Source: Eledone cirrhosa (Eukaryota). From it: DNA of 64,000 nucleotides. Location of the stretch: positions 89,590,001 through 89,654,000 of the forward strand of contig OZ024740.1 of the NCBI GenBank assembly GCA_964016885.1. The letters run 5' to 3'. The position numbers and the translations under genes were made by a program. Below the pieces are notes generated by a model. It had not been told where the DNA came from and made no database searches. It saw only the letters and a list, made by a program, of their open reading frames with translations. Below, in pieces: positions 14,034 through 28,757 of this stretch. Position 1 is the stretch's first letter. The number at the start of each line of letters is the position of its first letter.

Positions 14034-14373
14034 TAATATATATAAGATCAAAAGATGATTAAAAGAGTTCCATGTATTTTACTATGCGAATTTCCAAAAC
14101 AAATATCATCAACATATCATATGTTGATTTAAAACTGCACTATTCACAAGTGTATTTTAACCTTCATATCATGTCTTCCTATTTTATCTCATGAAAACAC
14201 AAATGTTATTGCATGATGATATTTGTTTTTGAAATGCGCATAATAAAATACATGGAACTCTTTTAACCATCTGTTGATCTTATATATTATGTATACTCCA
14301 GTCCTACAAACTGTAGAGTGCTTCTTATCCGATATCTGCATTGCTTTATAGTACTACAATAAAACTCACCTCC
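14034..14373 (+). mobile_element. Hairpin mini-PLE: inverted arm + pLTR with HHR + tail
   Basis: 14034-14110 is the reverse complement of 14214-14290. HHR: stem I TATTTTAT 14180-14187/ATAAAATA 14243-14250, core CTCATGA, GAAA 14231-14234, stem III ATGCGCAT. Confidence 0.75.
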
Positions 14374-14454
14374 TATATATATATATATATATATATATAT
14401 ATATATATATATATATATATATATATATATATATATATATGTATATATATATAT

Positions 14455-14800
14455 GGAGAAAAAATTTACGAAATGGAAATGCGGGTATATAGAATTTATT
14501 AGGTAACAATTGTTTCTATAGTGTATGGGTTACCTATACCTCGCTATTTGAATAATACACAAATATTATCATAAACCGAAGGTACACTGTAAGCCAACAC
14601 ACCATGTAATCAGACCTTTGTATTAGAAAGATATGAAAATAATTTATACACTAGATAAAAGATAAAAAGGAGGTAGGAAGAGAAGGGGAAGAGGGAAGTG
14701 AGTAAGGTGGAGGGAGTCTTAGGATTTAAGACTGTCAGACTAGTAGAGATTGTGAAGAGAGAATGTTTTGGCAGGAGTTAGCTTAATGAGGCGTGCTATA
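14455..14800 (-). mobile_element. PLE pLTR remnant with HHR (14501-14617, minus strand)
   Basis: Minus strand: aggt-CTGATTA-long stem II (catggtgtgttggcttac/gtaacccatacactata)-GAAA-CAATTG-TT-acct. Confidence 0.6.
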
Positions 14801-15325
14801 TATATACAATTATATTAAATAAATGGAAACTATATTTATAAAACCATATTTATTTTATTATATATATTTCAAGGGTACCAAGACAACATTGGTATGCTTT
14901 CATCAGATAATATACAAAGTTTGTTTTATAAATAGAGACATACCCATGATAATCTTACCTTATCGTTTGGAAATTCACTGGATAGTGGAAATATATTAGG
15001 GATTATTCAAATTTAACTGTTAATATGCAAATGAATATTTAAAAAATTGAAAAACAACCCTTCATTTAAATGACACTGGAGAGAGAGAGAGAGAGAGAGA
15101 GAGAGAGAGAGAGAGAGATATAGAGAGAGAGAGAGAGAGAGAGAGAGAGAGAGAGAGAGAGAGAAGATATACAGGGACAAAGATAAAAAATAGTACGAGA
15201 GAGAGAGAAGAAATAAAAAGAGGATGAATAAACTCATATAACGTTATTTTGCGTGAAATATATTCTAAGTATATATCTTAATATTACGTGTATTTAAGAT
15301 TATTGGTTGTTTAAAATGCGTTTCT

Positions 15326-15447
15326 AATATAATTGTTTCGACGTTAGGCACAAGGCCAGCAATTATCCAGTACATTACTGGTACTTTATTTTATCAACCC
15401 CGTAAGGAAGAAAGGCAAATTTAACATCGGCGGGATTTGAACCCAGA
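15326..15447 (-). mobile_element. SINE inserted in the left arm of the inverted pLTR
   Basis: Reverse complement of the SINE core; absent from the right arm (~17005-17015). Confidence 0.75.
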
Positions 15448-15886
15448 TTTGATTCGTTTCTAATATAATATTTTCTGTTATAAGTAGATAAATAAATAAA
15501 TAAATAAATACATGCATAAATGATAAATAAATAATAAATAAATAAATAAATAAATAAAATAAATAAATAGATAAATAAATAAATCGATGGGTATATCATG
15601 TTATATATAATTGTTTTAATGAGTTATGAGGGATATTGGTTTTGTATTTAATGTAAGTAAACATTAAGTTAAATTAAATTAAATTAACTGAGGTAATAAG
15701 AATATTTATACTTATATATTTTAAAATGGGAAAATACGGAAAAACTCCAGTTAATTTATTTATTCGATAGTATCAGACTATTTAGTCAAAATAAGTATAA
15801 ATGTTCAAAGATATATTTAGCCAAAATCAGTTAGTGGTTATAAATCTAATAAAAATATTGAAAACATATTAAAAAATTAAGAAAAC

Positions 15887-16280
15887 TGTCCTTTACAAAA
15901 TAAATGTTTAGATAAGGACGTCGTCTATGAAGGTACAGTCAAAACCAGTGATAATATATTTAACTATGTAGGTGCAACTTCTGCAGAATTTAAAAGCCGC
16001 TGGAATAATCACAAATGCTCTTTGAAGAGTTGATAAAAAATCTTCAACTTCTCTTTCAAACCTGATATGGAACTTAAATTGCAAGAATATGGACTATTCC
16101 TTAACTTGGGAAATAATATCGTTAGCACCCGCGTACTGTAACAGCTTCATCTAGATTCTGCAAATAGTGTGTTGAGGAAATTTTTTTTCATACATAAATG
16201 TAAGAACTCTATTAATCTAAGAACGAAATTATTTTATTCTTGTAGACATCGCCTGAATTCAACATTCAGAACTATATTTA
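15887..16280 (+). pseudogene. GIY-YIG endonuclease fragment (PLE)
   Basis: Hand translation CPLQNKCLDKDVVYEGTVKTSDNIFNYVGATSAEFKSRWNNHKCSLK, followed by stops and frameshifts. Confidence 0.8.
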
Positions 16281-25329: not shown

Positions 25330-27282
25330 TATAGTATACTAGGGAGAGGATCAGGGGTGTATAACACTCCACTTATCCAGCAGGCAGTATAAGGTTAGCT
25401 CGATGTCTGAGGACAGAGCCGTGATATAATAAATAACAAAGGACGCCTATAGCATATGCATATCTTTACTTGCTAACATTGTTTCATCCGCACTATAAGT
25501 GGGACTCATCAGAGCATAAAGGTTAATTACATACCATACAAGCAATAACAAATCCAAGACATTGAAGAATGAAAAATAATAGAAGATAAAGGATATTAAG
25601 GAAGTAAAAGTAAAAATAAGAATAAAAATAAAAATAAAAATAAAAATAAAAATAAAAATAAAAATAAAAATAAAAATAAAAATAAAAATAAAAATAAAAA
25701 TAAAAATAAAAATAAAAATAAAATAATAAAATAAACAATGAAAAATAAGGGGTGCTATCAGTTACAGTTGGGCGGGGTGCTGTCAACATATAGTTACATA
25801 CAAGCATACACGTGGATAAGAGAACAGACAAGAGTAGATAAGATAGATAGGATTAGGTAAGAGTAGGTAAAAAATAGGTGAAAAACAGACTTATAATATA
25901 TATAAGAAAATATAAAGAAATATATAACAAACTTACATATAAAATATAAAATATACAGATAATGGTGATACAGGGTAAGGAATGAAATAAAATAATATAA
26001 AATTAAAATTAAAATTATATAAAATAGAACATAATATAATATAATCATAAAATGAGATAAAATAAGGTAAACTAAAATAAAATAAAATAGACTAAAGTAA
26101 AATAATATAATATAAGATATAATTAAATGTAATTAAATAAATAAATAAATAAATAAATAAATAAATAAAATTAAATAAATAAATAAAATTAAAATTAAAA
26201 TTAAATTTAAATAAATAAATAAATAAATAAATAAGTAAATAAATAAATAAATAAATAAATGAATGAATGAAATTAAATAAGTAAATAAATAAAATAAGAT
26301 AAAATGAAATGAAATAAAATAAAATAAAATGAAATAAAGTAAATTGAGATAAGATATATATTTTTTTAGAATATATCTCTTGAATATATCAGGGGCACAC
26401 GAAGGCACTAAGTGTCACAGTTATCTGTATCACTTGACCATTTTTTTTAAATGTATTTCTTGAAAATATCAGGGGCCCACGAAGGCACTAAGTGTCACAG
26501 TCACCAGTATCACTTGACCATTGCAAGGCAATGGAGGCGTCCCAGGTTGGGCAGTCTCAAAAGTTCACTCGAAAGTCACGGGTGTGCATTCACACAGTTG
26601 AGCGGTGGGGTAATCACAAACCGGTTCACACCCGGGCAGGAGTCCAATGGTCAAACAGAGGTGCATCGAAGGAAGGTAGGAGAATTCCCGTGCAGTAGCA
26701 AGCGAGGTGCAGGCGGGTTAGCCAAAGCAAGCAGACACAGTTGGAGCGCATACAAAAGATATATAAAAAGACAAAAGATATATAAAAAATAGCTTCAAGA
26801 GCCATGAAGTCACCGCATTGGGACATCACAAGATTGTACACATCAATATGTTCAGCACGTATATGCACATATACACACCACATGCATATGCAGAGACGGT
26901 ATACATATATATATATATTTTTTTTTATATACAGACATATACAACCACCTACACCCATACACATATAAATGTATACACAGACACACACGCACACACACAC
27001 AGCGTAGGACATCCGGTCAAAGCTGATATTAAACACCGAAATACCACATTAGGCAAGACCCACCACCACAGATAATACATTCAAAATAAATACATACGAT
27101 GAGATGTAGTAAAATAAAGTTGAATTCCTACGGAGATAATCGTGTCCGCACGTGCCATTGCCCGATTCAAGTGTACACAGACCGTTAGTAACTACGGAGG
27201 GCTATCGGGGCCAAAACGTTACTTTCGGGATCATAACAACGACCGTCAATATATGGAAGGCCGATCGTGCTAGAAAGACTAC
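25330..27282 (-). mobile_element. Non-coding PLE-like element containing the 25464-25521 HHR and (TTTTTA)n/(TTTA)n tracts
   Basis: HHR near the distal end, low-complexity UTR, small tandem duplication 26380-26440/26455-26520, microsatellite flanks. Confidence 0.5.
25464..25521 (-). ncRNA. Compact type I hammerhead ribozyme with an intact core
   Basis: Minus strand: ctttatgct-CTGATGA-gtcc cacttatagtgc ggat-GAAA-CAATG-TT-agcaagtaaag. Confidence 0.8.
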
Positions 27283-27470
27283 ATATATATATACATACAT
27301 ACACACATATATATCCACATATCCATACATACACATACACACAAATACACGAACACACACACACACACACACACACATGTATCTATCTATCTATATATCT
27401 ATCTATCTATCTATATATATATATATATATATATATATATATATATATATATATATATATATATATATAT

Positions 27471-27567
27471 TTATTAAAATAACAGATTAAAGTTTAAGCA
27501 ATTTGATATATACTTTCCTTATCGAGCCCTCTATGGATTTTAGTCTTCAATTTTATTATTATTACTA
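27471..27567 (+). mobile_element. Miniature inverted-arm derivative of the 30373-33642 Naiad pLTR
   Basis: 27471-27501 is the reverse complement of ~30253-30284; 27502-27567 matches 30308-30375. Confidence 0.75.
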
Positions 27568-28073
27568 TATATATATATATATACACACATAAAATCATAC
27601 ATATATACACACGTACAATCACAAACATACATACACACATATATACACGCATATCTACGCACCCACAAATATATATATATGTACTCACACCTACATACGC
27701 ACACACACAAATAATTATAAGAAAAAATATTATAATAAAAATAAAAAACAATAGACGCCATTTAGGCCGTCACATAAGAATAAAAATAAATGTAAAAAGT
27801 ATTATAAAGTTGACAGCGATACAGGAATGGACATAAATAACACACGTGCTAATACACACAATTACACAATCTTGCTTTCAAGAAACCACTGGTAAATCAA
27901 ATAATTATCTTATGTTGTTTATTACATAACTATTAAGCTCTGTAACCTACATATAGCACTGTTTTTATCCTGGACCTTTCCGACAGAATTACTTCATTTA
28001 TATATATATATATATATATATATATATATATATATATATATATATATATATATATATATATATATATATATAT

Positions 28074-28270
28074 AACGAAGGAAATGTGGTAAGGAACCAG
28101 GTGGACCATAACGCACCAAAGTACTCAATACTTGAGGTAGTAGAGTGGGTAATAGGAACCAGTAAGACCCCGACAGCTGAGCTCAAGCCGTTTCGACGGC
28201 TAATTCTGGAGTCCAGAATTAGCCGTCGAAACGGCTTGAGCTCAGCTGTCGGGGTCTTACTGGTTCCTAT
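28074..28270 (-). mobile_element. Hairpin mini-PLE with a perfect 59-bp-arm palindrome
   Basis: 28152-28210 and 28212-28270 are exact reverse complements around a 1-nt centre at 28211; tail 28074-28151. Confidence 0.85.
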
Positions 28271-28398
28271 ATATATATATATATATATATTATGCATATA
28301 TACACACACACACACATATATATATATCTATATACACACACATATATATATATATATATGTATATATATATATGTATGTATATATATATATATATATA

Positions 28399-28757
28399 TA
28401 TAAATCACGAAAGAAGAGTGACACGGTTTGCTATATAATAAGGGCTTTAATCACATTGCTGACAATTGTTTCTCTGAACTGGTAGGTCTAGAGATCCTTA
28501 CCCGCCTGTTTCTATACCTACCTGTTCAGAGAAACAATTGTCAGCAAGGCGATTAAATCCCTTATTGTATAGCAAACCGTGTCAGTCGTCTTTCTTGATT
28601 TATAATTACTCTAAGTGTTAACAACATAGAAATCACTGCGTACTCGCAACAACATTATGGAAACGCTTTGTTGAGTCAAACTTAGCCAAGCGTTGATACC
28701 ATCCACTACTCGGAGTACACTAAGTGGACTACCTATAACAATAATCTGTTATCCCGT
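28399..28757 (+). mobile_element. Hairpin mini-PLE
   Basis: Palindrome 28399-28604; GAAAC-AATT-GTC at 28531-28542 (3' half of an HHR); tail to 28757. Confidence 0.75.

Follow-up and report, generated by a model that had tools for sequence, protein, structure and literature searches.

Penelope-like elements (PLEs) are retrotransposons for which an inverted and 5'-truncated copy next to the pseudo-long-terminal-repeat (pLTR), with a tail at one end, is described as the standard insertion unit of the endonuclease-bearing (EN+) types, according to the sections of PMC8557442 used here. Section 11 of the same paper describes the Hydra clade of C-terminal EN+ PLEs, which target (TA)n, contain hammerhead ribozymes (HHRs) and are characterised by the motifs RWK, DKT, CxCx5C, CxxC and CxH. 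The paper states as open both the origin of the tandem and inverted PLE structures and the reason for the retention of the hammerhead. Here, we analyse 64,000 nucleotides of Eledone cirrhosa (assembly GCA_964016885.1, contig OZ024740.1, positions 89,590,001 to 89,654,000), below called the window, and in particular five short hairpin inserts in (TA)n which, judged from their sequence, behave as ordinary truncated PLE copies. The window is microsatellite-rich animal DNA with 35.5% G+C. All positions refer to the window, and inserts are named by the position where they start.

Several other described systems are relevant for the comparison. The protein of the Anolis Poseidon element, PAc, cuts and extends both target strands, is predicted to be dimeric, and has two reverse transcription start sites that bracket the tail (PMC11167929); the portions of that paper covered here do not address inverted junctions. 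Twin priming has been described for LINE-1 (PMC10760644, in the part used here). The non-LTR retrozymes are, in the part of the preprint considered, non-coding and PLE-related, with a type I HHR, and form head-to-tail tandem arrays with intact HHRs (bioRxiv 10.64898/2026.07.22.740005). The relevant part of PMC4209133 reports minimal HHRs that occur in pairs, 100-700 bp apart on opposite strands, and also a long helix II. Penelope-like families are reported for an octopus, and the passages covered of PMC13282606 do not mention hairpins. Among the papers listed in our searches of the openly accessible literature, none maps inverted PLE junctions to stem II of the HHR or proposes twin priming for PLEs.

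A sequence-only reading of the window had described at least five (TA)n-embedded hairpins with unrelated arms and a unique tail. By self-comparison of the window and alignment of the arms we recovered all five, at 14034, 23306, 24383, 28074 and 28399, Table 1. The arms are identical in all 59 aligned columns at 28074, and agree in 159 of 171 columns at 24383, 85 of 94 at 28399, 55 of 63 at 23306 and 61 of 67 in the clean part of 14034, i.e. in four of the five hairpins they diverge at about 7-13% of the columns. Each hairpin has (TA)n on both flanks, with a CT tract between the tail and the right-hand TA run at 23306, and the tail is always single-sided. In the self-BLAST of the window the five have no match to each other, i.e. 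they represent five unrelated families, and none contains a head-to-tail tandem array. The small hairpins are real, and they are laid out as Penelope-like retrotransposon insertions of very short length within (TA)n. The sequence-only reading was right about the Penelope-like origin and the hammerhead context.

With the EN+ insertion unit, as far as it is described in the parts of PMC8557442 and PMC3846280 used here, the inserts share the head-to-head inverted copy, the one-sided tail and the junction palindromes, and apparently also, in degenerate or incomplete form, the HHR in the pLTR; partial tandems are present in the window at 7030, 42601 and 28797. They differ in that both copies are cut to 8-170 nt and that the hairpin tails are 64-163 nt long, compared with the published 30-40 nt; no target-site duplication is readable here, the target itself being (TA)n. 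Like the retrozymes in the portion described, the five inserts are non-coding, PLE-related and apparently of the type I HHR kind, but they are single head-to-head units, and three of the five are without the HHR core.

Table 1. Position, strand and anatomy of the insertions and related features in the window.
Feature	Position	Strand	Description
Family C hairpin insert	14036..14373	+	inverted arm 14038-14112, ~100 nt sense-only, sense arm 14213-14287, tail to 14373
Degenerate type I hammerhead, 14034 sense arm	14180..14250	+	8-bp stem I, CTCATGA core (14188), long stem II, GAAA
Family G hairpin insert	23308..23503	+	arms 23306-23367 / 23377-23439, 9-nt spacer, HHR 3' half only, 64-nt tail
Family H hairpin insert	24387..24892	+	arms 24382-24552 / 24560-24729, fold immediately 5' of degenerate HHR, 163-nt tail
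Family A hairpin insert	28075..28267	-	arms 28152-28210 / 28212-28270 (56-59 nt, identical), fold in putative loop of stem II, tail 28075-28152 (78 nt)
Internal (TA)n junction site of the family A insert at 28074	28152-28155		inverted arm meets (TA)n
Family I hairpin insert	28403..28756	+	arms 28399-28492 / 28511-28604, 18-nt spacer, GAAAC-AATT-GTC 3' half, 152-nt tail
Family A copy	19090..19180	+	~19-nt inverted stub, common internal site, joined to tail only; non-overlapping
Family A copy	3377..3466	-	~8-nt inverted stub (diverged), common internal site, plus tail; non-overlapping
Non-overlapping inversion from the window's own PLE	27471..27565	+	inverse of 30253-30283 joined to 30308-30373
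Family F	24957..27998	+	long inverted arm with HHR (core 25038, minus), short sense arm, 65-nt tail, other inserts nested between the arms
Long version of the same layout	14800..17542	+	~1-kb arms, each with HHR (14906 minus, 17350 plus), tail ~90 nt
Family B	7031..8031	-	tail, unit with 130-nt partial tandem copy, 320-nt inverted arm
Family B relative	42601..43500	-	tail, unit, 61-nt partial tandem copy, 178-nt inverted arm
Decayed Penelope-like element, partial tandem in (TA)n	28797..33641	+	frameshifted open reading frame (ORF) ~30430-32620

The fold points were placed on the HHR for each hairpin. At 14034 the inverted arm was claimed to stop at the stem II loop, and it does end in the loop, located near 14211-14214, of a degenerate type I HHR. 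The fold at 24383 lies immediately 5' of stem I, in agreement with the sequence-only reading, although this HHR, with a degenerate CCGATGA core and a 6-bp stem I, was read by eye and is weaker because it is absent from the motif-scan output and its predicted fold is not hammerhead-like. At 23306, 28074 and 28399 the HHR is present only from GAAAC to the cleavage triplet and beyond, i.e. as a 3' half. For 23306 and 28399 this is what had been reported, and with only the 3' half at hand we infer that the fold lies in stem II. The distance from the fold to GAAAC is 13 nt at 23306 and 20 nt at 28399; the 20-30 nt given before corresponds to the distance from the centre, and is slightly long for 23306. 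At 28074, where the fold had been noted near a GAAAC, we extended the parent with the loose ends seen in family copies. On this basis the fold sits in the inferred loop of stem II, and the closing stem is formed with the strand 5' of GAAAC. The closing stem is complete in one contig and the first seven letters past 28210 are identical in all four runs; CUGANGA of the parent was not found in the read and contig extensions.

Whole HHR motifs are found in neighbouring insertions, at 14906, 25038 and 25512. A search for exact HHR cores gave two sites in the window and none in each of ten shuffles, while in the one-mismatch scan the shuffles yield 0-5 sites. Rfam gave no match in the window at the gathering score, and single-strand folding of 24383, 28399, 23306 and the pLTR of the PLE gave no hammerhead-shaped fold.

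The five hairpins stand at one end of a continuous series, which runs from stubs of 8 nt up to the 1-kb arms at 14812-17542. Self-comparison of the window identified twelve insertions with an inverted arm of about 8 nt to about 1 kb (3377, 7030, 14034, 14812, 19090, 23306, 24383, 24957, 27471, 28074, 28399 and 42601). A tail at a single end was measured in nine of them, 35-163 nt long and above the published 30-40 nt in seven. In six of the twelve the inverted arm carries sequence that is missing from the adjoining sense piece: the two parts do not overlap in 3377, 19090 and 27471, and the inverted arm is the longer one in 24957, 7030 and 42601. Where the inverted arm meets the (TA)n run, the parent continues with 2-8 bases matching (TA)n in ten of the eleven insertions checked (14812 was left out, its edge being unclear), for which the chance is about 1e-9 at 32% per base. 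The three family A copies of the window start their inverted part at one common internal site, with lengths of ~8, ~19 and ~56 nt, and have three different junctions. To within a microhomology of 3 nt, the stub at 19090 (19090-19108) ends at the predicted cleavage site. In family F the short sense arm begins at 27869, in a stem II loop. At 14812-17542 a decayed GIY-YIG segment lies between the arms, with the junction beside it and far upstream of the HHR. No complete HHR was found in family B at 7031..8031, and neither 18927-19043 nor 3489-3526 has a convincing match to family A.

We consider it fairly probable that the hairpins are made by twin priming at a cut (TA)n, with two short element copies joined head to head; the priming and the joining are deduced from the anatomy of the junctions. 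The endonuclease would nick both (TA)n strands, and the two 3' ends would anneal to UA in element RNA of the same sense, the first where the tail ends and the second at the fixed internal TA site. Since the reverse complement of (TA)n is again (TA)n, either nicked strand could pair with UA or UAU on same-sense RNA, and this would give the inversion. The long stem II, or a protein bound there, may stall the reverse transcriptase, and both copies would often end within ~20 nt of each other. Where both copies stop in stem II, the product would resemble a fold-back. For arms that overlap, the model would call for another RNA, for two pLTRs on a single RNA, or for one RNA being copied again. The two cDNAs would then be joined head to head by microhomology of zero to a few nucleotides, and the products would probably be dead on arrival.

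This model of twin priming follows from in vitro work on a PLE protein, PAc, which cuts and extends both strands and has its two start sites on either side of the tail (PMC11167929, in the portions covered). PAc resembles the window insertions, for which two starts can be deduced, in having two starts, one of them internal. The model parallels twin priming in LINE-1. There, the second priming site is variable and the arms overlap little, while here the second site is fixed for each family and the arms can overlap into a hairpin. Otherwise the proposed model and LINE-1 are alike in the second priming at the target, the joining of two cDNAs by microhomology and the inverted 5' part (PMC10760644, in the part used).

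Family A, to which 28074 belongs, was followed in other samples by comparing a 143-nt reference, ending at 28213, with raw restriction-site-associated DNA (RAD) runs X21 and X22 and with contig sets X1 and X5. The figures for joints cover 15 of 19 joint rows and those for loose ends are among the rows listed, with 474 further rows; the rows of far ends were counted with the kind of joint not stated per row. The family accounts for 22287 of 12,467,656 reads in X21 and 22916 of 12,785,554 in X22, i.e. 0.18% each. Loose (TA)n ends at 28152 were found in at least 3444 reads of X21, at least 3020 of X22, at least 84 contigs of X1 and at least 3 of X5. Position 28152 is a recurrent internal (TA)n junction, used by all three family A copies of the window. 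Opposite-strand joints with one side at 28210 have the other side at 28115, 28118, 28130, 28133, 28145, 28158, 28174 or 28209, and five of these eight rows stop short of 28152, i.e. the arms do not overlap. We interpret the 28210 joints as complete inverted arms to which sense arms of different lengths are attached. The symmetric 28209/28210 joint is found in 7 of 115 reads of X21, 7 of 126 of X22 and 4 of 14 contigs of X1, among the joints listed.

Among the 16 far ends listed, 14 are located in stem II, at 28199-28212, and ten in the loop. Compared with a uniform spread over 28171-28212 this has p-values of about 1e-5 and 2e-6, respectively. Stem II is therefore a probable hotspot of stops, for a single family and with the biases listed below. 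One listed far end is at 28171, the predicted cleavage site; together with the 19090 stub, it hints that some templates were self-cleaved.

The position of the folds could also be a selection effect only. The 5' ends would be random, and with an HHR 20-100 nt from the starts any short hairpin would be centred near it. The short hairpins were indeed the ones picked, the longer insertions of the window end far from the HHR, and of 20 arms extending to a GAAA that can be recognised 12 have their stop outside stem II, a tally that includes doubtful HHRs and in which four of the eight stem II stops are inferred. However, within the visible 42 nt of family A 14 of the 16 listed ends fall in 14 nt, and the stops at 14213 and 27869 lie in loops of stems that are present in the window. 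Selection alone is rather doubtful as an explanation. The rivals overlap, since twin priming leaves room for a selection effect on where the folds lie.

The sequence-only reading had proposed that stem II itself is a snap-back site: the first cDNA would fold at stem II or a local palindrome, and extend on itself until TA permits joining to the other target strand. A self-priming version was suggested by Arkhipova 2013, and in the part of PMC3846280 used here palindromes at inverted junctions are read as self-priming. Four of the twelve insertions of the window are nearly symmetric, with spacers of 1-18 nt, and the arms at 28074 are identical and have minority alleles in common. Short secondary palindromes at the junctions of 14034 (14103-14122) and 24383 (24545-24570) are compatible with self-priming of a few bases before the joining. 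However, folding back on the native stem II cannot yield the six insertions with an inverted arm not contained in the sense piece, nor five of the eight listed joint rows, and for the former reason we disfavour it. The inverted arm begins at the fixed internal site even where the sense part lacks that arm, as in 19090, 3377 and 27471. The hairpin at 28074 has only 3-4 loop bases per arm, i.e. the native loop is not kept, and its spacer base agrees with the parent on the inverted-arm strand and not on the strand of the first cDNA. At 28399 the last 6 nt of the 18-nt spacer, when read on the inverted strand, can pair with the strand 5' of GAAAC, which suggests, judged from the insert itself, that the inverted copy is the longer one. 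Snap-back is thus an unlikely general origin; it may apply to four of the twelve insertions of the window, and a few added bases at the junctions of 14034 and 24383 may also stem from it. Of the proposal, stem II as the place of the junctions is retained, given the concentration of listed far ends in one family, while the snap-back is not.

Several observations weigh against twin priming with stops in stem II. Four of the twelve window insertions (14034, 14812, 23306 and 24383) could still be snap-back copies, two of them with the extra palindromes mentioned above, and the minority alleles shared by the two arms of 28074 (28160 and 28175) fit a single template. The Anolis element initiated in vitro without homology to the cut DNA, while the window starts carry TA microhomology from which we infer pairing (PMC11167929, in the portions covered). 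Some arms pass their own HHR without a stop: both arms of 14812, 12444-13383, 25512 and the PLE at 28797-33641. The reads cover one of the five hairpin families, and only part of the joint and loose-end rows is included in the figures. An AATT site at 28202-28205 truncates 7177 of 9909 RAD reads, and the surviving reads are therefore a subfamily; the rows at 28158 coincide with a subfamily boundary. Because the reference ends at 28213, arms well past it cannot show as joints, and the pile-up at 28210 may in part be an edge effect. Counted by reads, non-overlapping joints make up 26 of 115 in X21 and 75 of 126 in X22, and they are found in 5 of the 14 X1 contigs, among the joints listed, so that "mostly non-overlapping" is true of the rows and not of every run. 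A pile-up of read ends at 28205 was rejected as a biological stop, since it lies at the AATT site and is likely the cut of the presumed library enzyme.

It had also been suggested that the palindromes form a distinct non-autonomous class, i.e. that hairpins are transcribed and re-mobilised as units. The symmetric 28209/28210 joint does recur in three samples, including four contigs, and family A is very abundant. However, the symmetric form is a minority of the joints, the three window copies have three junctions, the recurrence is accounted for by a shared stop site, and the five hairpins belong to five unrelated families. We regard such a class as very unlikely; the hairpins lie at the end of a continuum and probably do not form a mobile-element class of their own.

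Palindromes are a known artefact of assembly and amplification, and chimeras of this kind had been named as a possible objection. Between the arms (11 pairs) there are 43 transitions and 94 transversions, compared with 106 and 131 between direct repeats (8 pairs), a post hoc difference (Fisher p 0.012) that could come from sequencing error or from mismatch-biased correction in hairpins. Against chimeras, raw reads from two further samples and four contigs from a third contain the same class of joint, with the symmetric one included, although these may be other loci. The divergence of about 7-13% between the arms in four of the five hairpins likewise speaks against them. The single-sided tail and the fixed TA start are foreign to library fold-backs, and the layout is published for PLEs. 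An artefact is hardly credible here. Twin priming, with TA-primed starts on both strands, is the reading that we keep.

The window also contains a decayed PLE inserted in (TA)n. Its ORF shows RWR (in place of RWK), DKT, CxCx5C, YIG, CxxC and CxH, the last two flanking a conserved E and N, plus GIY-YIG in C-terminal position, i.e. Hydra-type motifs. Compared by motifs alone, and by its (TA)n target, the ORF would be that of a Hydra clade PLE as defined in the section of PMC8557442 used. The five hairpins have no sequence link to it; only 27471 has one. The ORF pieces gave six unnamed homologs among 430 candidates, with E-values down to 6e-37, and Pfam gave no significant family for the pieces or for four of the homologs. 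A parent with reverse transcriptase and GIY-YIG was found for 27471 (30400-33641), and a GIY-YIG remnant is present in the spacer of 14812. For the five hairpins no such parent was found in the window.

Other repeats were observed. The family B insertion and its relative contain related (68-75%) non-coding units of ~700 nt with a partial tandem, an inverted arm and a 35-38 nt tail, and a CTGATGA half core near the internal start for which the GAAA partner was not found. At 17616-18907, on the minus strand, a (TA)n-flanked non-coding unit has 330-nt direct repeats (95.7%), each with CUGAUG-..-GAAA but lacking a clear stem I; the unit's 5' end is 25 nt upstream of the core, and it is possibly a non-autonomous PLE. 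Sense-only PLE-like ends at 12444-13383 (+) and 25338-25560 (-) have hammerhead motifs at 13286 and 25512, and no inverted arm was found for them. A short interspersed repeat of ~90 nt is present in six copies (4596-4664, 9924-9992, 11204-11294, 15329-15448, 36530-36639 and 47557-47661), one of them nested in the left arm of the 14812 insertion. Decayed non-LTR retrotransposons are located at 44899-48770, 51008-59105 and 40400-42150, with RVT_1 and zf-RVT matches at 52790-54223; we take 47740-48770 to resemble the restriction-like endonuclease clade, and 44899-47554 contains a long old inversion. An old palindrome at 60661-60840, with 67% identity, is without (TA)n flanks.

The layout of these insertions is already known; what is of interest is the fixed TA-primed second start and the probable stop hotspot in stem II, a mechanistic point that can be tested. 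An abundant family with short copies is a natural data set for separating twin priming from self-priming, and the first-pass data favour twin priming with TA microhomology, with a hint of stem II stops and of some copies that end at the cleavage site. In annotation work, inserts of this kind can pass for miniature inverted-repeat transposable elements or microRNA hairpins. As a tentative idea, possible but not probable, stem II may serve as a programmed signal at which two reverse transcriptases, one primed from each strand of the TA repeat, stop and their products are joined, with cleavage not needed. If true, this would explain the head-to-head inversions across the whole class and would mass-produce short genomic palindromes, some of which may be sources of hairpin RNA.

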